DNA from: Microthyrium microscopicum
Taxonomy: Eukaryota
Length of the DNA stretch: 64,000 bases
Assembly: GCA_010405405.1 (NCBI GenBank)
Contig: MU004244.1
Location: 995,895-1,059,894, forward strand
Direction: 5' to 3'
Shown: positions 13,205 to 31,100 of the stretch, in pieces
Layout of the letters: each line of letters starts with the position of its first letter
Numbering within the stretch: the first letter of the stretch is position 1
Position numbers and translations under genes: made by a program
Notes under the pieces: model-generated
Seen by the model: only the letters and a program-made list of their open reading frames with translations
Database searches by the model: none
What the model was told of the DNA's origin: nothing

Positions 13205-14209
13205 TCAGTCTCGGAGTATGCCAACATGAACAACAAATCCCGAATTCTCGCTCAAATCCTTTGACAAAAGCTCAACTTCTAGACGCCAGACTTGGAACTT
13301 GGCATGAAAGGCTTTGAGCCAACACTCAAAAACGTCCGGTGATCGTAATTGCTGAGCAAAAATGCAGATTGTGGGTGAATCTGCTGGGGCAAGCTTGCAA
13401 ATATCGGCACATGTATCTACAAGTGGGTCGACCAGCGCTTCGTTGTAGATGCAGTCACAAGCAACCACAAGCTGAACATGTTTTGCGGCTTGGGTCAGAT
13501 TCAAACCAGAGAGAAAGCCATTTATGGAGTCGGTCTCCCAGTCAAGTGCCTTGATGGTAACATTGCCAATACTGTCAGTGGTTGGCACATCAGCTGTGCG
13601 TTTCCGAGAAACCTTTGGTACTGATTTGGGTTTGCTGGATTGAATATTGTCTGTAATGTTTTGCTTCAGTTGTTTGAGAACATAGGCTTGATCAGTGCAG
13701 ATATATGTGCCTATCTTTGGGCTCAATGCAAGGGCGATGATACCAGATATCCCGCAGCCAAGTTCAAGGACCACAGAACTGTCGTTGAGAACACCATGGG
13801 TGAAAAGAAAGTTTGACGGTGCAGATACCCACTCCGCAAACCTTGGAGAAACTTGCCATAGAACTTTGGTCGATGATTAGAGACTTGGCAAGTGAGAAAA
13901 GTCAGAGCGACAAGGCTGACCTGCTCCAGTAGTTCCCTGTTTGCGATTCGAATTTAGAACGCCGGGAGATTGCTTGATGACGAAATCTTTGCCGGAGATG
14001 CTAATGTCCAGCTCGGAAGACTTGCTGTCGACAAATCCGAGAGAGTTTGAGGGAATGTCTTGAGAGAAAACTAAAAAGGCTTCTACACTTTCAGCCTTAT
14101 GGTTAGGTATATGAGATCAACACTGGGAATATTGAGGGGAGGGATGTGGTTGGCTACCTTGGTCAGTATCGTCAATGGCAGTGCCGAGGGTAGGAAGCAA
14201 TTTATCCAT
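13205..14209 (-). CDS. RKM5: Rkm5-like seven-beta-strand protein lysine methyltransferase
   Basis: Spliced N-terminus MDKLLPTLG...EAFLVFSQDIPSNSLGFVD...IKQSPGVLNSNRKQGTTGAVLWQVSPRFAEW. SAM motif VLELGCGISG, plus ALDWE, ACDCIYN and QQLRSPDVF. Confidence 0.8.
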
Positions 14210-15186
14210 GACTGCCGGTGCAATGATATTGGCTAGGGGTTGATGTCAATTACTTTTCGAAGTCTTTGGAGATTCAATTGCCCCTCTGATGCTGTACAAG
14301 GAATAAATAATGATGGATGTTGTGTTGAACTTGACTGAAGCAACTGCTGCGAGGAGCTACTTGGGGTAACGATGCATAGAACCAATTGATTAATCTGGTG
14401 AATATGAAGCTAGGAAATAACTTACGAGGAGCGAAAGCTAGGAATTAGAGACCAAATAGCAGCTACGTACGATATACCTGGCTGGGCAGATGTTCGGTTA
14501 CTGTTAATTCCAATTGATCCGTGGACTAGGTACCAGTCGTTGAAGATGCTGGGTAGCGGCAAGACGAAAAGTCAAAGTTGTGGAAGCAATCGTTTTCTTT
14601 TGGTCATGGAGATGACAGTAACGCAAATGCCATTAGTATTTGGCGGTTGTGCATCAGGCTGATAGTTATTGAGGCGATGTAAAAGGTTTGGAGGAGCAGT
14701 CAAAAAGAAGGAGGATATGGAGGATGGCCAACCCCAGAGCCTCAGCTATATGGCCCCTGTCTGGTAGCTCTTGCCTGCAGCTTCAGTAGTCGCTGCCAGC
14801 TGGGGAAAGAGCAGAAGTGCATGGGACTCTGACCACCTAAGGCCTTGGGATCTTAATCCAAACCCTCATCTCTCAACTTCAACCTCTTTCATGATTCCAT
14901 CTCTTCTCCTACAACCTACTATCTTAAATTGTTATCTCCGCCTCTATCCTCTACCTCTTAGCCGCACTTTGCTATTTTCTGGTTGATACAGAACCAGCCT
15001 CCCAGGCCACCAGCCCACTAGTGCTCTGCAGCTCAACGTCACTTGGTCCCCATAACCAGTAGTACGTAGAGAGTCCATACAAACTACCATCTGTAGTCTA
15101 CCATCTTCTTCATCTAACAATATATCAAAAATCCAGCTCCATCCATTTCCCCGCCCCGCGCAAACTTTACTTCCACATCCGCAATC

Positions 15187-17500
15187 ATGCCTATCCCAAA
15201 CACAGATCTCAAGAAGCTCTACCCGCTTCCCAAGCTCTACAACTCGGACATAGCTACCACCGAAGTCACCGACCAGAAGGCTGTAGCAGGCGAAACAGTC
15301 CCTAGACGTAATCACAAGACACCCAAAGAGCTCAAATGGCAACCCGCTCCAGAAATTTCTACTGTTCACGATATCATGCGCTATGCCTCCAAGAAATTCG
15401 GCAACGCCAAGGCTCTCGGCTCTCGCAAGCTCATCAAGATGCATAACGACTCCAAAATGGTCAAAAAGGTCATTGATGGCAAGGAGACCGAAGTCGAGAA
15501 GAAGTGGCAGTACTTTGAGCTTGGTCCTTATACACATATCAGCTTCGTAGAGTTTGAAAAGCTTGCTCTTCAGGTTGGTGCCGGTTTGAGAAAGCTTGGC
15601 TTAGAGCCTGGCGACAAACTTCATCTCTTTGCCGCGACACAGTATGCTTCCTAAACATGATTTGTATTCATCTAACGGTTTCTAGTCCTCATTGGCTAGC
15701 TTCAGCGCATGCGGCTATGTCTCAGTCGATTCCGATCGTTACCGCCTATGACACACTCGGAGAAGAAGCCGTTACACACTCTATGCTTCAAACTAACGCC
15801 AAAGCCATCTACCTGGACCCACATCTACTCAAGACTCTCATCAACCCGTTGAAAAAGGCCAAAGATATCACCAAAGTCATTTACAACACTTCGGATCCTG
15901 TCAAAGAAGAGGACATCGCGGCTCTTAAAGAAGCCCATCCACACTTGGAAATTCTAAGCTTCGAAGACGTCCGAAAACTGGGCGAGGAGAATCCAATCGA
16001 CACTGTTCCGCCAAAAGCCGATGATTTGGCCTGCATCATGTATACTTCCGGTTCGACGGGTACTCCCAAAGGTGTCAAGATTACCCACAAGAACATAGTG
16101 GCATCAGGTATTTAGTTTCGCCTACTTGTATTCTCGTCATCGCTAATTTGTTTGCTTAGTATGCGGTATCTGCGTTATTGTCGGAGTTTACCTTGGACCA
16201 GGCGATGGTCTACTTGCCTATCTCCCACTGGCACATATCCTAGAATTCGTCTTCGAGAACACTGTCATGTTTGTAGGTGGAACTCTGGGCTATGGCAACT
16301 TTCGCACGCTGTCGGACACCAACTGCCGTAACTGTGTTGGTGACATCAAGGAGTTCAAACCAACCATCCTTGTTGGTGTCCCTGCAGTCTGGGAGCAAGT
16401 CAAGAAAGGTATCATCACCAAGGTTCAGGGCGGCAGCGCCATTACCAAGAGCATGTTCTGGGGCGCAATGTCTACCAAGGAATTCCTTCTCGGTAGAGGG
16501 CTCCCTGGTGTTGGAATCATTGATTCAATCGTTTTCAGCAAGGTTCGAGAAGCCACTGGTGGAAAACTACGTATTGCGTTCAACGGCGGTGGACCTATTT
16601 CCAAAGAAACCCTCAAGTTCATCTCGATGGCCATTTGTCCTCTTATTAGCGGGTATGGTTTGACCGAGACTGTTGCTGCTGGAGCCATTCAAGATCCTTT
16701 GAAATGGTACCCAGATGCACTTGGTGAGGTTCCCGGATCTGTGGAAATGAAACTTGTCGATTATGAAGATGCTGGATACAAGTCTACCAACAACCCGCCC
16801 CAAGGTGAAATCTGGATTCGCGGCCATTCCATCACTCAAGGTTACTTGGACAATGAAGAGGAAACTAAAGCAGCTTACACTGATGATGGATGGTTCAAAA
16901 CCGGTGATATTGGCGAATGGGACAAGAATGGTCAGATCAAGATTATTGACCGCAAGAAGAATCTGGTCAAGACCGTCAACGGCGAATACATTGCTCTAGA
17001 GAAGGTATGCGCTTACCCCGTCAAACTCGTAAGCCACAGAACAGTACGGCTAACATATACCATAGCTTGAATCAGTCTACCGCTCAGATTCAGTCGTGGC
17101 GAATATTTGCGTCTACGCTGATCAGAGCAAGTCCAAGCCAATTGCAATCATTTTCCCAGCTGAGCCTGCACTCAAAAAGATGGCCCAGGAAAATGGCATC
17201 TCGGGCGATCATCTCGAAGAGCTTATTCATGACGCGAAGTTGCAGAATCTTGTTCACAATGCGCTTTTGGCTACTGGCCGTAAGGGTGGGCTGAAGGGTA
17301 TTGAACTCATCGATGGAGTTGTACTCGCCGATGAAGAATGGACACCGCAAAACGTAAGACTCCTCATCATTCTCTTACCTGGATCTATTGCTAATCATAC
17401 ACAGGGCTTCACTACTTCAGCACAGAAATTGAACCGAAAGAAGATCCTAGAACACTACAAGAAGGAAGTCGATGCCGCCTACAAAAAGGCTGGTCAATAA
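15187..17500 (+). CDS. FAA1: Long-chain fatty acid-CoA ligase (Faa1/FaaA-like)
   Basis: AMP-binding motif [13 protein letters not shown], plus [16 protein letters not shown] and GWFKTGDIG...[10 protein letters not shown]...GEYIALEK. Four canonical introns. Confidence 0.95.
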
Positions 17501-18183
17501 AGAAAAGCATGCTCTATTAGTTTTTGCTTATTCCTATTGAAGAGATTTACATATTTCTCGTTGACATTGTGTGTTTGTTCATGTTTTCTTAGTTCTATAT
17601 CTCCCCCCTCGTGTACTAGTTTGGATGCCTGGCATGTGCTTGGTGGGCGTGTGCGTGGTGTCTTGGAGTACTTCGTTTTCAACAGAGCTCCAGATGGCAT
17701 TGTGGCTTAGTTCTGATGCCGTTGGACTATTGAAAAGTCTTTCATTCCTGTGGAGTAGTGGTTTGGGTGGTTCTCGCTTCCTAGCTTGGCAGAGGATGGA
17801 GGGTCTGCGCAGATTGGTATTATGTGATATGATTGTACAAGTTTGGGTCGTCTACTTGGTAGTTATCGTAAATTCAAGGCTTTAATCATTGTAATCCATT
17901 CCTCCTCTACTGTTCTACTCGATCCTATTACCTTCCTCGCCATCTTTAACCTGCCTGACCTCCTCTCATCCAGGGCGAGCAGAGCCTCAAGAGATAGAGT
18001 ATCTCAACCTACACGACGATCGAAAAGTCAACACCAAAACCAAGCTTCTGAAAAGCCAATAACCTTCCAACTCTAACAATTGCCGCTAGTTCCTCGCCAC
18101 AAGAAAATACATCTCCTTCCCTAGGAACATACCTATCAACCGAGATATTCACCCACCACAGACAGGAAATAAGATCAAAAACA

Positions 18184-18570
18184 TACCAATCTCCGTCCAC
18201 ACCACATCCGTGCCTCAGAGTAAACCCCAGAACAAGAAAAGGGCGAGCCGCAAGGGCCCGGCATGGCTGGTGCGGCAAAAGTAATATATTCACATCAACT
18301 AGCTTGCTTTGCCCTTGCATGACCATCAGGCTCGCTACCGTAATGAACCTTGCCTACGGAGTCCGGGCGGAAAGAAAATGTACACTCACTAGTAGTACTT
18401 AGTGATCACGAACGCCGGTTTGTGCTACAGACGGTTTTGCTGAGGAGATACACAACTTCCAGACGGTTCAGAGCTTCGTGAATGCCGAGGGTGGAACAAT
18501 GTTCCTCCCAACGCGTGGTTGGCAGTGTTATGGGGACGCGGTGAAGCTGAAGAGGAGGCACGGAATGGTT
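18184..18570 (-). ncRNA. Candidate structured non-coding RNA (unassigned family)
   Basis: TATATATAA at 18633-18625 (minus) followed by a CT-rich tract. A 10-bp end-closing stem (18207-18216/18555-18564) encloses several nested stems. No credible ORF. Confidence 0.5.
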
Positions 18571-19564
18571 AATGAGCTACCCGTAACCGTGCGAGTGTGC
18601 GAGGGTAGAGAGGGTCTCCATGGGTTATATATACTGGTACTGAAGCTTCTAGAAACAATGGTGTATCTAACAGGGGACTAGCGATGCGCACAGTGTACAC
18701 TTGGGAGGGATGGTTAAGTAATATTATAGAACTGTTATGTTCCGCTTTCTATTCGCTGCTTGATGCTAGTTCTAAATGCTCCAAGTAGCAAGTGCTACTT
18801 CCGCACATCATTGGCAATCATACATTACTAGACTGCTCGCGATCGTCGTTGGCTCAATTCTGTTCTGTGCGACCACACTTTCACAGACGCCGTTGCAGAC
18901 AATTGTGTGCGACGAGCGTTGAGGCCGTATGCTCCGTGAATGAAGACGATATTTTGCAAGTAAAAGACGGACCAGATGAGTGTCTGTGAGCTCGGAGAAC
19001 AACGGGATATCAGAACGAGCGTGCAGGCTGGCCATGTGCAGTGAGTGAACTCTTCCCATTCCTATTTTTGTCTCGTCGACACAGGAAAAAAGGGGTGCAG
19101 TGTCAATATCGCTAGCAGAGTTTTCTGATAGTGTTGTTCGCAACACTTTCTAGGATGTGCCACACGGATTTGGTGTGACGGGACAGTTTGCGTTCCTCCG
19201 GCGCAAAAGTGAAGATTTGAATTGCGTTATCAACCTGGTTCGTAATATAATGTTACGGCGCTTTGGCCAGGAGATATGACATGGGAATGACATGACGCCT
19301 TGTATGCCATCGAGATACGAGAAGGAATTTTTGAATTTTTGGGGTGCTACCCGGTAGAAGGAGCCGAATGCGTTACGCGAGTTGGTGGATTGATGTATTG
19401 TGATCACCTGGTTTATATCATGAGGCGAACTACTCAAGTGCTCTGGCTGGGGATTTCCTCGTTTTATGTCGTTATCAAGGTCTGTGTGATAAAGGTGTGC
19501 TGCATATAACGAGCACATTCTTCATTACTTTCGCCTTTACAGAATTTGCGGTCCTGGAAACAGA

Positions 19565-20288
19565 TCATAGTTGAGTAGTGTCGTAGCCAGGCTTGTTGAC
19601 GGTGAGCATGTCCGCTGTCGACGATCGCTTGCTCGCCTTTCCTTGTGGTGCTTTTCCCTGCGGCGAGCCGTCAATCTCCGCTTTGTAGGGGTTTGTGGTG
19701 ACTGTGGTGGTTGACTTTCCCATGAAGGGTTCTTTGCTTTCGCTGACATGAACTTCTCCTGTGCTCTTGTCTTCCACGCGTTCATAGAATTTAGAAGTAT
19801 CGCTTTGGAAGCTGGATTGGAACTGAATCCTCTTCTCATTCGTCATTGTGTAATACGTTTGTTGAGTACAGGTAATGTTGAAGGATGAAGACCTTGCAAG
19901 ATCTAGGTTGGCTTAAGACTGCCATGTGAAGTCGATCACCCAGTGTCGTCATCAACTTCCATGTGGTGGCGCCAGAAACCTTGCTTCGCCTGTCCATTTT
20001 AGGAAGTATGTTGCATATCAGGAGTATGAGGAGTAAGGTACATCGTACTATGACTTCAAGAGCCTCATGAACTAATAAAAGAAAACCATTGAATTCTGCA
20101 AATATAAGATAAAAAGATATCGATCGTGTACGGAGAATCCAGCTCCGTTCACCTGTATCAGCCAGGATATTCGCAATAGACACAAAATCCAAAGCCATGG
20201 ATACAACTGCTATAAGCAACCACGAACTACTGATAAAGTATACAAGTACGACATTTTGACGGTCTGTGGTCCAGAAAATTTCTGGTAC
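19565..20288 (-). CDS. Possible 3' exons of a hypothetical membrane protein (may be degenerate)
   Basis: Hydrophobic segments (VVLVYFISSSWLLIAVVSMALDFV; VIVRCTLLLILLICNIL), intron-like signals and a charged C-terminal ORF at 19846-19565. No clean full model was found. Confidence 0.3.
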
Positions 20289-23200
20289 CTGCAGTACACG
20301 ACGAGTCCTGGTCGTCGATCAATTAATGTCTACCTTATTTCCAAATCTAACCAATTTCAAGCCTCTATGTAGAGGCGTGTGGGTGCAATTTTCTCTCCAT
20401 GGCATTGCCTGATTTGCCACTATTTCAGGTGTTTCCGTGCCAGAATAGGAAATGGTACTCATCATCATCTTGGCAAATTGTTTGTGCGTGTGGTATCGTG
20501 AAGTTCTACCAGGTAGCCATGAGTGAGCTGTGGTCGCTCTGCAGAAGTGCGTTGATAGATCGCGATGCGATATGAACTAATGGCATTGCGAGCTTTGGAT
20601 GCGTGCGTATGCGGATGACACGTTTAGTACCATGTATAAACTGGAAAGGAACGGTTTTGTGTGAAGCTTGCGTCTTTGACTATGGTTTTTTTGTGCGCTC
20701 AAATAGTGAAGAAATACCTAGTGTCCAAAGTCTCAGATAGTCATATAGAACAGTTACCTAAGCTTGAAATGTATTATCTTCTAGATTCGTCATTTCTTTC
20801 CTCGTTGGATGAGGCACATCTTAGCATCAAGTCCTGTACTTGGATATGTTTATGAAAGTGAAGGATCCAGTGGAAGATAACACAGACCACTGGAAATATT
20901 GACACCAATTTACCCGGCAAGCCATTCCGGATTGGGCGGGAAAGGAGCCTATTTTGTAGCAATTACCTTACCAAAATATCAACATGCCCGTGTCGAATCA
21001 CTCTTACAAGGTCCCATTGAAGAAATGGTCTGCTTAGAGAGTCAGACTACCTGGGTTATTGACAAATGATATAGTCCTCACGACTGATGTCTGGAAACGA
21101 GCGCATCAGACTGATGACTTGCATGGCCTGTGATGATAGATTAGATTGAGTCAACATATACGCCAATGGTGGCAAGAACTGTGAAAGGGCGAAAAAATCA
21201 TTGCTCCAGGTAGATCATCGTTGATCATATGAGAAACGTAAAACATTTACTGAAGGCAGGATCCTAGATGTCGACCAGTTATCAGCAATTCTAGGTGTCT
21301 TCTTTGAATAGTTTGAAGAGCATGCCATATCCGTTTCGAGCTCTCTGGATCTTTGACCAACAAGAGGTCGAGGGTATAATCCATGGCCAGGGTACGATCA
21401 GATCGAAGATAGTCCCAATTTATGCTCTGGAGGGCGGGGCTGCCACGAGGTAAGCAATAGCTTTCCCCAGACTGATTGTCGTTTTGAAACGAAAGCGATG
21501 GATGCGGGTGATGAGCTGGGCAAATCAGCACCATAGGACTCGAGTGGCGCTGTAAACATATGAAACCAACTAGGCGAGTGCTCGTCCGGGTATACAGCTT
21601 AATTGGTAACTGACAGCCCTCGCAGAAATCATAAATAGTGAGGGATGGGGTAAGTTTGGCACATGTCACAGTACAAGAAGTAAAGCCCGCATGCAGGGCA
21701 TGGCCCAGGTACAAATACTCGTGGCGCATCTGTAGATCTGTTGGCAACCTACCACGGCACTGGTGAAACACTTTCTCTAGGATGCGTGGTCGGTTTGAAC
21801 TGGCTGGAGATTGTTTGATGGTAAGGTGTACACTCTCGAAGGTCACGAGCCTTGTCGGGCCGCTGGCAAGGCTGAAGTTTTTATACTGGGAATGGCAAAG
21901 ACGCGAGAAAAAGATGTCGTAAGCAGTATGATGTGTTGCATGATGCTGTAAATTGAAGATGCTGATTTCCAGAAGCGGTGGTGGTGATCTAGACCTAGTA
22001 TCTGGAGTGGTGGGTTTATCCATGTTACAGACTGGGGCATGCACAAGGCTTCCTGGGTATAGCTGATGGATGTTATTCCTTCTGTCCGTGTGGGAAGCAC
22101 ATCAGCTTCTTTGGATATAGTGGTCCCAAGACATTGATGCCTGCACTTGATGGGCGCATGGGTAGTAGGGTCGAGTCGCAGTGTTGCTGGTTAATAGAGC
22201 CGACGCGTTAAGAGGTGGAAGGAAGAGAGAAAGAATAGAACATTGATAAGTCAAGCTTGTTAAGGAGATAATAAACTAAAGGATAGTACATAAAGCACAT
22301 AATGAAATCCTTTTGAGGGTTGGTAATGGTAGAAGAACATAGGATAGAAGTTAGGTTGGAGAAGGTTGATAACCCTTTTAAGCGAGTAACAGCCCAGCCA
22401 AAAGAAATTATATGGCGTGTATGGTAACGGCTAACAACGGCAACGATACGGAGGTAATAAACAGGCTATAAAAATCTTGCAAACTTGTCAAAGCATCAAA
22501 TGAGCGCGGTCATACTGAACTTCTGATTTGTTATGAACGCCGTAAGCTTATTGTATCAGCCTTCTTTGGTGTTTACCCCGACGGTCCATATCTTCATATC
22601 GCTGGCTTGGAGTTGTAAGCACCTCAGATGTTCAAAGGGTATATCATGCAGGTTTAAGTGTTTATTGTCGTCCAACTACTAGTACTTTCTTCAACATTTG
22701 ATGCAATGCAATCTAGTGTTTGGTGTAACCTTGCACTGGTAAAGTCTGGTATAGGCTCAAAGCTTCAAAAGCAGCACCTACCATTTACCATTACCATTTA
22801 CCGCCAATATCTCGTATCATACATGGCATCTATCGTGTAGTGAGCCCGTTCCCTGGGGTTTTGTTCTACTTGTCAATGTCACACTCTATCCGCTTTCCAT
22901 CTTTCTAACCACTCCAGACATTCTGTACTACCTATTAATTGGCCCAGTCACAGCGCCATCTTGAACTGTCTTACTCTACCTAGGGTAATCCTCTTGGATC
23001 TAGTCTCCTCTGTACATTAGACCCATCTAGCGTATTCTCTCCAAGACTCAAACTACTTGCTGGTCGGTTGATCGCTCAGAGCATGTTAGCATCTCAGCAA
23101 TTCCAGGTATTATCCCGGCTCTAATTCACCTATCCGCCGCTCCCCCAGACTCTCGCTCTCATCAAAATGTGCATCCACGCATCCATTATTATCTGCCGTT

Positions 23201-27284: not shown

Positions 27285-27564
27285 AATCGATCTACCAATG
27301 AACCACCCATCCGTGCATATTTTCATAAAACGAACGACACCACGTTTTGGGAACGTTTCCAGGTACCAGGTAAATGTGGCTGAACGGCTTCCCGCAGCGG
27401 GCCGTACCTGCATGATCAGTTTTACCCCAGAAAGATGAGAGAACGAACGGCATGCATCTATCCACTTGTTTGAGATGCTTGGTAAAAAGACCGAGGCGGC
27501 CGAGGCGTTGGGATGCGCCTCGGTGCGTTGGTGAGTTTGACCGGGTTCCGGTTAGCGATCGATT
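27285..27564 (-). ncRNA. Second candidate structured non-coding RNA (unassigned family)
   Basis: Lies between convergent farA and histidine kinase genes. TATA-like element at 27685-27691 with a C/A/T-rich leader on the minus strand. Closing stem 27285-27292/27557-27564 encloses four hairpins. Confidence 0.45.
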
Positions 27565-28152
27565 AGCTGGGAAGCAAGCGAGTTCTGGTTTTAAATACTT
27601 ATGACTGGGTAGAATGAGATAGTGAGAAGGGAATGTGGGTTTTGCTTGATAATGTCGTTTTGGGTTTTGGGTGATGGCTGTTTGTATATAAGTTTTAGAG
27701 GGGGGAGGCGATGGGGATAGATACGGTGGTTAGTGGGTGAGTTAGAAATGATAGAAGAATCTCGCCAAAGAAAGCGATTTAAGGAGACAAAAGGCCAAGA
27801 ATGTTAATGGCATGCTCATCGAGTGCGATTTCTTCCATTGCATATTATGGGAAGAAGGAGCATGCGCTCTAACCCATCGACATCCTATAACCATATCATC
27901 ATACTCCTTAAAGCATAATTTAGGAAGTAAGAGAGTGTAGCAAAGGACTTTAGGATGTACGCCATTTACTTTATCCATCATTCGAAAGTCAAGGATGCAA
28001 TGTCTCAGAATATTTATATTTCATGGGCTAATCATGGCATCATACTTCTCGTAGTCTAAAACATCTACCAATGTTTAGCATCTATTCTTACCCCTTCAGG
28101 TCACGCAAAAATGCGTTCCTCGCTATATATACAATGGGCTGATGAATGATGA

Positions 28153-31100
28153 TCAACGATGCTGTGCAACGTGCGATTTCCTGTACGCCGTTTTCATTTC
28201 CGTGACTAGTTCCTCCATCCGGTACGGCTTGGTCGTTACGCCATCCATGCCTGCTTCCATTGCAGCGCGCACATGCTCGATTCGAACATTTGCGGTGACG
28301 GCGACTACGGCATGATGGCCCTTGAGGGAACCTGCTGCTTCCAGTTTCCTTATGTGACGAACACATGAGAGACCATCCATATGTGGCATCTCGATGTCCA
28401 TCAGTATGACATGGAAGGAATCCTCTGTGCCCCCGTCCACATAGGACGTCGTCTGATATAAGCGCTCCAAGGCCTCGCCTCCGTGGTTCGCCGTGACGAC
28501 ACAATACCCTCTCTTGATAAGCTGTTTCGCTAGCACCTTCTGATTAACCAGATTATCTTCCACGACAAGAATCTTGGCTATCTGCGAGGCATCTGCGCCA
28601 CCTGTCGTCGCGTCGGCGCCGTTGTTAATGATCAAGGAGCTGAGTCTACGCGTCAAATCTTTCGCTTCGAATGGATTGGCTTTCGGTGCTTCAACGACCT
28701 GCGTTTGCACGAAAAATGTGAATGTGGAACCCCGCCCTTCTTCGCTTGCGACGCCGATTTCGCCGCCCATCATCTCTGTGATCTGGCGCGATATGAAGAG
28801 GCCGAGCCCACTGCCGCCATACTGGACATGTGTTTTTGGCGATCCTTGGGCAAAGCGTTGAAATAGGCGGACTTTTTCATCAGGGCTGAGTCCTTTGCCG
28901 GTGTCAGTGACCGACACGGAGAGATATATAGTATTCTTATTAGTTTCGAGATGTTGGGTCCTGGCGGGCTGTTTTCGATTGATGTGTTGAGGGAAATAGT
29001 CAACAGTGGAATTCACGGTAGGGCGGGTGGTGGAAGCGGCAATTTTCAAAGTAATGTGTCTTGTTTTGCGGTCGCGGGTGAATTTTATGGCGTTGGTAAT
29101 CAAGTTGATTAGGACTTGGAGGAGCCGACTTGGATCGAGTAGAATCCAGTCGACATTGAGTTGTTGAAGAGATTCATCCAAAATGACGGATGTTTCTATT
29201 TGGGCGGTTTTGAGCTCGCCTTCGAAGAGTTTGAAAGCTTCTTTGGCGGTGTTGGCGGGTTGGAGAGGGACGGGAGATATGGTCAAAAGGTCTGAATCCA
29301 GTTTTGAGAGAGTCAGAACGTCGTCTACAACGCGTTTTTGGTGCTGGACGCAGTGGACAATGGTTTGTGAAGCATCAATAGCACTTTCTAGTAGGCTATT
29401 GAGTGAAGGCTGAAAGGTTTGTTGAAAGTTTGGTGATGCGATGGCGGTGAGACTTTCAGCCATGGATCTATCGATCTCTTCTGCGCAGTGAAGTACAGCG
29501 GACAACGGGTTGCGTATCTCATGCGATATCATCTGAGCTTTGTCAGTATTCAATGTGCGAAGCTCCTCGAAGTAACATACATCAATAAAGTTTTCCTGTT
29601 GGCGTTTTAGTTCGAGGGCTTCCTTCATTTTCGTGTTAAGGCCTTTAGCCACCGCTTTTTGCATGGAAATTTCCGTTATCCAACATACAACGTTCTTTAG
29701 TTCACCGGCCCTATTCAGTTCACCATACCCTGACGCAAGTATCCAGGCCGTGTCGTGGTTCAATCCGGGCTTCTGGCCAGGCATATCCCATGGCCGCTTC
29801 AATCTAGCTTCAACAGTAAGAGGACCCTTACCACTAACAATATCATCAAAAAATTGTTCCATTTTGACATAATCGTCAGGGTGAACAGCTTGAAGCCATG
29901 GTCGAGGAGTCTCCCAGTCAGCTTCTTGATCAAGTATATTGAGCCTTTGAAATATCAGTAAATGTTTTGTAACATATGGAGTTTAGCACCTACCATGCTG
30001 GATTGGTATATTCTATCATGCCAATCGAACTGATGAGAGCGACGCCAATCGGTGCATGATCTGCAAAGGTTCGATACTTGACCTCACTTTGCTCTAGTTC
30101 CCGCGATCGTAACCGGACTTCGTTCTCGATCCATTTAAGCTCACTGATATCCATGGAAAGAGCTGTAGCTCCCACGAGTTTGCCGTCGTCGTCTAGTTGT
30201 GGATAGGCTGTGCAAAGACCGGTTTTGTAGTCGGCTTCCATGAGGCCATGCTCAACATTGTGCATACTGAAAGGTAGTTTTGTTCTAATTTGAAAGGTAT
30301 TTGCTGGTTTCAGAGCCAAAACTCTTGCCCATTCCTCACGTATGATATCTTCATCTTCGGGTACGACGCTATCCAGCATTGTTAAATAGTCAGAAACGCC
30401 AGGTATGTGCCCAGTGAAGGCTGTCCAAGCCGAGTTAGCGTATATTACCCGACCATCCAAGTCAGAGGTAGCGACTCCCACGTTCGCTAAGCTGGCAAAT
30501 TGCGCAAATCGATCTTCGCTTTCTTCGAACTCCTTCGTCCGTTGGCGTAGTTGATTCGATAGCTCGGCACGTTGAAGAGCAGAAGCTCTTGCATTGTGTT
30601 CACTTTGCTTGACCTCTTCAGCAAGTATCAGTTCCGAAAGGTGGCTAGTGATGTGCTTGGTGAGGAGATGGACATAATCCTGATAGTCGGAGTCATATTT
30701 TCTCCTGGGGTTCAAGCCTACCAGCATAAAACGAACAAGTGTGCCATTCCTAGTGCGAATGGGGTATAGGAGGAATTGTTCGCTTGGGACGCCAAATCCT
30801 CGCCAATTGGTGCTGCTGAATAGATTTGGCGGGAGCTCTTTTCGCTCCACCAATGTAGGCGAGTATTTGACACTTTCAATACACCCCTTATATATTGATC
30901 CAATTCCTGACTGATCATTGTGAAGATCAATCTTGGACAAAGACGCAATATCTTCATCGGAGACCCCCATCCATTGCTCGAGTATGCATGAGTCCACGCT
31001 ATCTGGTGACCCAGAGTCACCGGCCCTCTTGGTCACTGAATACATCATGAGAAGCGGGATATCTTTATCGTTCGGCTCCAGTCCCTTGAAAAGATTGGGC

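Follow-up and report, generated by a model that had tools for sequence, protein, structure and literature searches.

Downstream of a fungal FAA1 gene, a long closing stem encloses a series of smaller stems, and this raises the question of whether the spacer encodes a standalone structured RNA or contains these stems incidentally. We examined the locus within a 64-kb stretch (G000:C15:995895-1059894) of a 37-Mb fungal assembly, hereafter the window, whose own numbering is used for all positions. A sequence-only reading had proposed a multibranch Pol II transcript of about 370 nt, read from the minus strand and outside the known families. We favour, with a probability of roughly 55%, incidental stems in a non-coding spacer that follows the FAA1 terminator in a Dothideomycete-type fungus; a real standalone structured RNA at this position is a serious but less probable outcome. 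These odds, and those given in words for the other readings below, are judgements and were not computed.

The FAA1/FAA4-type long-chain acyl-CoA synthetase gene lies on the plus strand (15187-17500) and was recognized by its open reading frames, ATG, TAA and PF00501 homologues; its largest exon matches a protein labelled Microthyrium microscopicum at 99% identity and the other relatives listed at 50-76%, with the best non-self relatives of similar length at 69-76%. In contigs from run X1, two FAA1 introns are spliced out and the FAA1 transcript contigs end near 17849; the next contig covers 18764-19883, and the candidate sits in the 915-nt gap between them. No X1 contig covers any part of 17850-18763, a result that we count neither for nor against a transcript; the contigs are unstranded and the run is not recorded as RNA. 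Run X2, likewise not recorded as RNA, gave a single 212-nt piece within the FAA1 3′ region. The contig at 18764-19883 is unspliced, of low depth and undefined in strand, and the open reading frames 19565-19912, 19836-20318 and 21247-22101 (minus strand) have no Pfam match above the cut-off and no match in the atlas.

Upstream of FAA1, a Methyltransf_16 gene (13205-13876, minus strand) lies in divergent orientation. The same gene stands upstream of FAA1 in 11 metagenome loci (L007, L009, L010, L012, L018, L021, L022, L024, L030, L031 and L044), and this pairing is deep microsynteny. In several other fungi an intron-containing tRNA gene lies 0.6-1.3 kb 3′ of FAA1 (L007:7911-8018, L013:2779-2884 and a similar one in L017); the window contains no tRNA genes. 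A repeat search returned nothing of note, and a literature search of partial coverage returned no publication on an RNA at the FAA1 3′ spacer locus.

Stems and predicted fold

All six stems named in the sequence-only reading are perfect reverse complements, letter for letter, and the two smaller hairpins that accompanied them, GGAAC/GTTCC (18493/18501) and CCAAC/GTTGG (18508/18518), are both present in the sequence. The nested drawing built from these elements survived in part. The listed stems are mutually compatible, but as a set they are not the favoured structure, and forcing them costs 13.0 kcal/mol on the plus strand (-115.0 versus -128.0) and 7.4 kcal/mol on the minus strand (-104.3 versus -111.7). 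Of the eight stems listed, three reach pairing probabilities of at most 0.17 on both strands: AGCTTC/GAAGCT (0.00/0.01, given here and below as plus/minus), CCGTA/TACGG (0.01/0.12) and CCAAC/GTTGG (0.10/0.17). For the others the values are 1.0/0.96 for GCAAGGGC, 0.69/0.94 for GCGAGCC, 0.37/0.85 for TCACTA and 0.99/0.76 for GGAAC. The region of small hairpins (18489-18522, both strands) hence combines a supported GGAAC/GTTCC hairpin with a poorly populated CCAAC/GTTGG one.

The closing stem, P1, is a perfect 10-bp helix on both strands between 18207-18216 and 18555-18564 (p 0.96/0.96), and a local hairpin at 18557-18592 (z -1.84) competes for its right arm. Inside P1, a second long-range helix that was absent from the earlier list joins 18225-18234 to 18526-18535 on both strands through 9 of 10 pairs, and its CCCCA/TGGGG part has probabilities of 0.98/0.96. 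This helix crosses AGCTTC/GAAGCT (18472-18477 with 18543-18548), which is unformed in the nested ensemble of either strand, so that a pseudoknot is the only arrangement in which both helices could be present. The most stable element is a 95-nt bulged hairpin at 18242-18336, present on both strands and made up of 8+8+4+7 bp on the plus strand. In these models, P1, the second long-range helix, the 95-nt hairpin and the GGAAC/GTTCC hairpin are predicted to form a robust core on either strand.

Fold stability relative to shuffled and ordinary DNA

When the 450-nt interval first outlined is compared with shuffled sequence, it has z-scores of -1.41 on the plus strand and +0.41 on the minus strand. 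Trimmed to the closing stem, a choice that favours the candidate, it has z-scores of -2.25 (3/100 shuffles) and -0.86 (17/100), and block shuffling keeps these values at -2.3 to -2.65 and -0.6 to -1.0, respectively. A fold better than its shuffled controls is thereby found, modestly, on the plus strand; the minus strand, the one proposed to be transcribed, folds like its shuffles. The 95-nt hairpin alone has z-scores of -3.28 on the plus strand (1/200 shuffles) and -2.28 on the minus strand (5/200), and it ranks second of 112 shorter local folds between 10 and 30 kb.

Over the same 10-30 kb, both strands included, the plus-strand fold of the candidate is 12th among the 40 best listed non-overlapping folds of at least 250 nt, and several of the folds ranked ahead of it overlap long open reading frames. 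More stable local folds, with z-scores of -3.9 to -4.65, lie at 20161-20475 and 27419-27710 on the plus strand and at 29086-29463 and 14607-14939 on the minus strand; the strongest short fold of the region is at 27464-27584. Structured RNAs of the same genome, with 30 shuffles each, gave sense/antisense z-scores of -3.6/+0.05 (RNase MRP), -3.1/-1.2 (SRP), -1.5/-0.4 (U3) and -1.0/-2.1 (RNase P). For yeast, the available part of one study reports that 5-10.5% of control sequence passes a z-score of -3.5 (PMC2603021). The fold of the candidate thus stands out to a modest degree, which neither proves nor refutes an RNA.

We also compared sets of stems by a nested-stem score, in which perfect stems are counted. 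The candidate is the best of the nine closing stems of at least 10 bp in the 64 kb, and of 2000 shuffled versions of the 915-nt spacer, 8 attained its score; as the window holds about 70 spacer-sized stretches, our arithmetic gives roughly 0.3 such scores expected per window. Among unrelated loci from the same genome, 54,436 nt in total, two of five long closing stems equal or beat this score, at a span limit of 480 versus 460. Stems of at least 10, 8 and 7 bp are found together in 19 of 1273 overlapping 358-nt windows, a count in which nesting is not required. The genome's own RNase P RNA scores like the candidate (13/54/3 versus 10/53/3), and its MRP, SRP, U3 and Afu_309 RNAs score lower.

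For the incidental reading, the minus strand that folds like its shuffles, the 12th rank of the plus-strand fold and the comparable stem sets in ordinary DNA are all favourable. It has to accommodate the low count of 8 in 2000 shuffles, the like score of RNase P RNA, the strong 95-nt hairpin and a plus-strand signal that survives block shuffling. On balance, we infer that selection does not act on the fold; it would represent the upper tail of ordinary DNA of this genome and would have been picked out as the top case in 64 kb.

Promoter-like signals and strand

The minus-strand TATA and CT sequences named in the sequence-only reading are present. The TATA element TATATATAA (18625-18633, running from 18633 to 18625 on the minus strand) is followed by a CT tract and lies 60 nt from the closing stem. 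It is palindromic and gives a TATA match on the plus strand too, at 18626, from where it could serve a transcript toward the contig at 18764; the pattern TATA[AT]A[AT]A has 14 matches on the two strands of the 64 kb. The CT tract (18601-18614, minus strand) is 14 nt long and lies downstream of the TATA element, 36 nt away from P1. On the far side of the fold, a T5 run at 18181-18177 on the minus strand begins 25 nt past the closing stem, within a flank (18001-18200, minus strand) that has a G+T fraction of 0.71 and also holds GTATGT at 18186. This flank is the second-highest G+T 200-nt window of the 64 kb (mean 0.51, sd 0.064) and is equally C+A-rich on the plus strand; by its composition, it looks like the 3′ flank of a minus-strand transcript or the 5′ leader of a plus-strand one. 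Read in order, TATA element, CT tract, T5 run and G+T-rich flank would make up a coherent minus-strand unit.

Genes of the same genome provide a measure of these signals. The G+T fraction is 0.67 in the 3′ flank of FAA1 itself, 0.68 on the other strand of the FAA1 5′ region (15151-15350) and only 0.52-0.65 in the 3′ flanks of control ncRNA genes. In 2 of 10 controls, U4a and U2b, a TATAAA lies ahead of the gene, at 51 and 45 nt, respectively (two start points were set by eye). In seven of eight control ncRNA genes, the 25 nt abutting the 5′ end have a pyrimidine fraction of at least 0.84; the same 25-nt measure at the closing stem of the candidate gives 0.52 on the minus strand and 0.64 on the plus strand. 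The best pyrimidine window before the stem on the minus strand reaches 0.76, or 0.80 if the start is set at 18543-18539, a position that would leave the P1 arm untranscribed. On the plus strand, a pyrimidine-rich tract at 17900-17974, 240 nt upstream of the fold, has 25-nt windows of up to 0.84 and is a possible promoter tract or the 3′ part of a weak intron; the plus-strand 3′ flank is not T-rich (0.23).

The strands are thus in conflict, with fold stability pointing to plus and promoter signals to minus. Neither this conflict nor the modest z-scores exclude a real RNA, because real RNAs of this genome have z-scores from -1.0 to -3.6 and RNase P RNA folds better on its antisense strand. We consider unlikely a corrected form of the sequence-only model: a Pol II RNA of about 370-410 nt from the minus strand, outside all described families, that would act as an RNP scaffold restricted to this lineage. 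With the TATA element at 18633, it would start near 18590-18573, end past P1 near the T5 run and the G+T-rich flank, and fold around a core of P1, the second helix and the long hairpin. Such an RNA is consistent with the correct order of all four flanking signals, with probabilities of 0.94-0.96 for P1, the second helix and the hairpin on the minus strand, with the RNase P-like nested-stem score and with the single copy of the DNA, and the family-less RNAs of Aspergillus fumigatus offer a precedent (PMC2377427, in its available part). It fits poorly with an overall z-score of -0.86, with a CT tract that is short and 36 nt from P1, with a 5′ hairpin that competes with P1, with the lower G+T of control 3′ flanks, and with a sequence in which we find no known box, Sm site or guide.

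The same flank can be read differently. The leader-like bias at 18001-18200 resembles that of the FAA1 5′ region and there are candidate splice signals on both strands, as would be expected of a small peptide gene, or of a spliced non-coding host gene whose exons fold by chance. This we regard as hardly plausible. The best introns score 13.1 and 13.0 versus 16.4 and 14.2 for the verified FAA1 introns (with rough matrices), none of four open reading frames in the interval has a Pfam match above the cut-off, and tblastn of these gave no match in the orthologous loci (3 tested).

The incidental reading takes the opposite strand preferences of folding and promoter signals, and the weak 5′ pyrimidine content, as evidence in its favour. 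It is challenged by a TATA element near the distance seen at U4a and U2b that aligns with a CT tract, a T5 run and a G+T-rich flank in a spacer needing no promoter. Under the incidental reading, the palindromic TATA element and the biased flank may point to a Pol II transcript that is weak or conditional, running either on the minus strand toward the FAA1 3′ end or on the plus strand toward 18764-19883, and this transcript would act, if at all, through being transcribed and not through its fold. In its TATA element and pyrimidine tract, its G+T-rich 3′ flank, its single copy and its lack of an open reading frame with relatives, the candidate is like the intergenic lncRNAs or cryptic transcripts of convergent spacers; unlike these, its fold is somewhat stronger than that of most such DNA.

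Comparison with known RNAs and related loci

The candidate fits no known family in an Rfam check, in which no model matched at gathering level in the window, and the exclusions of the named RNAs hold. With E-values up to 10, the region 17500-19500 gave six chance matches only (E 2-8.5), and alignments of the candidate to nine of the genome's own ncRNAs stayed at null level (best 15/200). RNase MRP, RNase P, SRP, U2, U3, U4, U6, Afu_182 and Afu_309 RNAs were all located elsewhere in the genome; U3, U6 and one U2 copy have apparent introns near their 5′ ends. A TPP riboswitch matches at gathering level at L179:1592-1715. A scan for viral patterns returned 120 chance matches, none of the 120 with a partner arm or extension.

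The predicted architecture of the candidate is like that of RNase P and MRP RNAs (RF00009 and RF00030) in its size (358 nt versus 419 and 472 nt here), long closing stem, second long-range helix, long hairpin and possible crossing helix near the 3′ end, and on the minus strand the word TGGGG-TTA, close to the 3′ end, looks by eye like the MRP 3′ conserved region. In RNase MRP RNA, CR-I (GAAAGUC...) directly follows the P3 hairpin and pairs with CR-V as P4; nuclear RNase P RNA carries CR-I to CR-V and the P4 pseudoknot. On the plus strand of the candidate, the predicted helix order resembles P1-P2-P3 and the putative P4-like pairing is short, consisting of 6 bp (18336-18341/18538-18543) that include two G-U pairs and would arise by chance roughly once in 10 by a hand estimate. 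Unlike these RNAs, the candidate has no CR-I, model match or sequence similarity, and both true genes lie elsewhere. Specifically, identity with RNase MRP was rejected as CR-I is missing on both strands yet found in the genome's own MRP RNA and there is no RF00030 match, even a local one, and identity with nuclear RNase P as CR-I is missing yet found in the genome's own RNase P RNA (L002) and no RNaseP_nuc match appears even locally. The RNase MRP RNA gene (L001, G000:C15:964846-965317) is on the same contig, about 31 kb before the window start; the RNase P RNA (L002, G000:C14:440374-440792) has clear conserved regions and scores 27.3 bits versus the Rfam cut-off of 28.

These comparisons bear on a plus-strand structured RNA, started at the 17900-17974 tract or processed from a longer leader, that would keep the P/MRP helix order without the catalytic motifs. 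Its predicted order would be P1, P2, long hairpin, inner domain, P2′ and P1′, with a possible pseudoknot. The better fold of the plus strand (z -2.25, and -3.28 for the hairpin) and the 6-bp pairing where P4 would be speak for it; we nevertheless hold it to be distinctly unlikely, given the absence of CR-I and of any P/MRP model match, the presence of both genes elsewhere, alignments at null level, the 1-in-10 chance of the pairing and the 3′ flank that is not T-rich (0.23). The specific version in which a non-catalytic scaffold would preserve P1-P2-P3-(P4), with the true P and MRP RNAs elsewhere, is in our judgement highly improbable.

Other named RNAs were rejected as well. For SRP RNA, U2, U3, U4 and U6 there is no family-model match at the candidate, and the genes are elsewhere. 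For U1 and U5, the characteristic motifs (the U1 5′ splice-site arm and loop II, U5 loop 1 and the Sm site) are absent on both strands; a 9-nt word at 18404-18412 resembles U1 loop I and its stem is missing. Rfam models and motif patterns found neither U1 nor U5 in the whole genome, so that at the candidate the exclusion is one by motifs, and both genes may be split by introns or missing from the assembly. Telomerase RNA carries a template for TTAGGG repeats and is about 2 kb long; no TAACCCTA, AACCCTAA or CCCTAA occurs in 17500-20000, and genome searches did not locate its gene.

We next consider snoRNAs. On the plus strand, 18373-18454 has an H/ACA-like arrangement of an ANANNA box, a weak hairpin (z -0.98) and ACA; the H box at 18373 and the ACA at 18452-18454 are found on this strand only, and no ACA follows P1 on the minus strand. 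Against the genome's own LSU, SSU, 5.8S, U2, U4 and U6 RNAs, the best plus-strand H/ACA guides score 11.0 and 12.5, which is null level (11.0 was reached by 28 of 40 shuffled target sets, with a null mean of 11.4, and 12.5 by 5 of 10), and the minus strand gave none; the guides sought were bipartite and placed 14-16 nt ahead of a box. No C box (RUGAUGA) occurs in 17500-20000, and the best C/D guide before CUGA is 9 nt, with none of at least 10 nt. A loose match of 18563-18578 to LSU is likewise at null level (25 of 60 random 25-mers were equally good). Separately, 18223-18211 on the minus strand has 13 nt of complementarity to the U2a 3′ stem-loop region (0/60 null windows, in one of 14 tests); the match contains CUGA itself and, by eye, U2b differs, and it is probably chance.

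Among yeast RNAs, snR86, which we take to adjoin FAA4, raised the idea of synteny. This was rejected: there is no snR86 match (the control of one of the searches was silent), and beyond the closing stem we find no ending of the H/ACA type. In the available parts of the sources, the conservation of snR86 is confined to its 3′ hairpin (PMC2551606) and the corresponding RNA of Pezizomycotina measures about 180 nt (PMC5824354). The candidate is like the long yeast H/ACA snoRNAs snR86 and snR30 in having a large folded domain in what would be an independent gene; unlike them, it has no H box, 3′ hairpin and ACA after the large domain, and no target. The snR30 m1 and m2 words are absent from both strands of the candidate. 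They are present in the Afu_309 orthologue (L168, G000:C9:952455-952724), where m1-like and m2-like words near the 3′ end are followed by ACA and are complementary to the two snR30 sites of the genome's own 18S; judged from these words, Afu-309 may correspond to snR30 in filamentous ascomycetes. A match of the m1/m2 pattern at L169 was rejected as snR30, being probably chance, with about one expected by estimate and no ACA after it.

An orphan or diverged snoRNA, whether an H/ACA unit within a folded plus-strand precursor or a long snR86-like H/ACA RNA, would account for the box-hairpin-ACA spacing and would agree with Neurospora crassa, in which H/ACA genes are mostly independent and intergenic (PMC2780460, in its available part). 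We nonetheless think it very unlikely: no pocket or target rises above null, the hairpin has a z-score of -0.98, no ACA follows P1 on the minus strand, there is neither a C box in 17500-20000 nor an snR86 match, and the Pezizomycotina counterpart of snR86 differs from the candidate in size. The available parts of the N. crassa snoRNA tables (PMC2780460) and of a fungal motif survey (PMC5640933) contain no counterpart by size, boxes or context.

By description, the candidate is also like RNAs of A. fumigatus, for which verified intergenic RNAs of 225-600 nt with no family are reported in the available part of one study (PMC2377427). Afu-182, -202, -254, -309 and -448 (Jöchl et al. 2008, PMC2377427) are, like the candidate, intergenic, 270-420 nt long and of predicted structure, with no class when described; unlike it, the Afu RNAs, so far as that part of the study goes, have northern signals and several are conserved, and in this genome other contigs carry the orthologues of Afu_182 and Afu_309.

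A DNA search found the candidate to be single copy in the genome. For comparison we used 39 metagenome loci with FAA1, most of them 53-70% identical, and none of the 39 has a homologue beside FAA1 (best blastn E 0.68; none by nhmmer). The window likewise has no match in the downstream regions of the 36 FAA1 loci with a mapped stop. A covariance model of the hairpin, searched against the window together with 31 of these loci (the other eight of the 39 being near-duplicates or lacking downstream DNA), returned itself and one partial match at E 0.057. These missing homologues are uninformative because the loci are distant; the upstream methyltransferase gene is kept in 11 of them and the downstream neighbours differ. 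In our judgement, a standalone RNA of about 360-400 nt and of no known family, on either strand and lineage-restricted in a little-sampled Dothideomycete, is doubtful. The incidental reading agrees with the lack of a family, of similarity to the genome's own ncRNAs and of any guide above null.

Because the candidate matched none of the families tried, it would, if real, be new, and filamentous ascomycetes would then have a further class of mid-sized structured RNA. Nearly all of the known set (P, MRP, SRP, telomerase, U RNAs, snoRNAs and a few Afu RNAs) can be accounted for at other places of this genome, and a P/MRP-like scaffold without catalytic motifs would, if true, be a real surprise. 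As it stands, the locus is a target for testing and not a finding, and it shows how frequently good single-sequence stem sets occur in ordinary fungal DNA.
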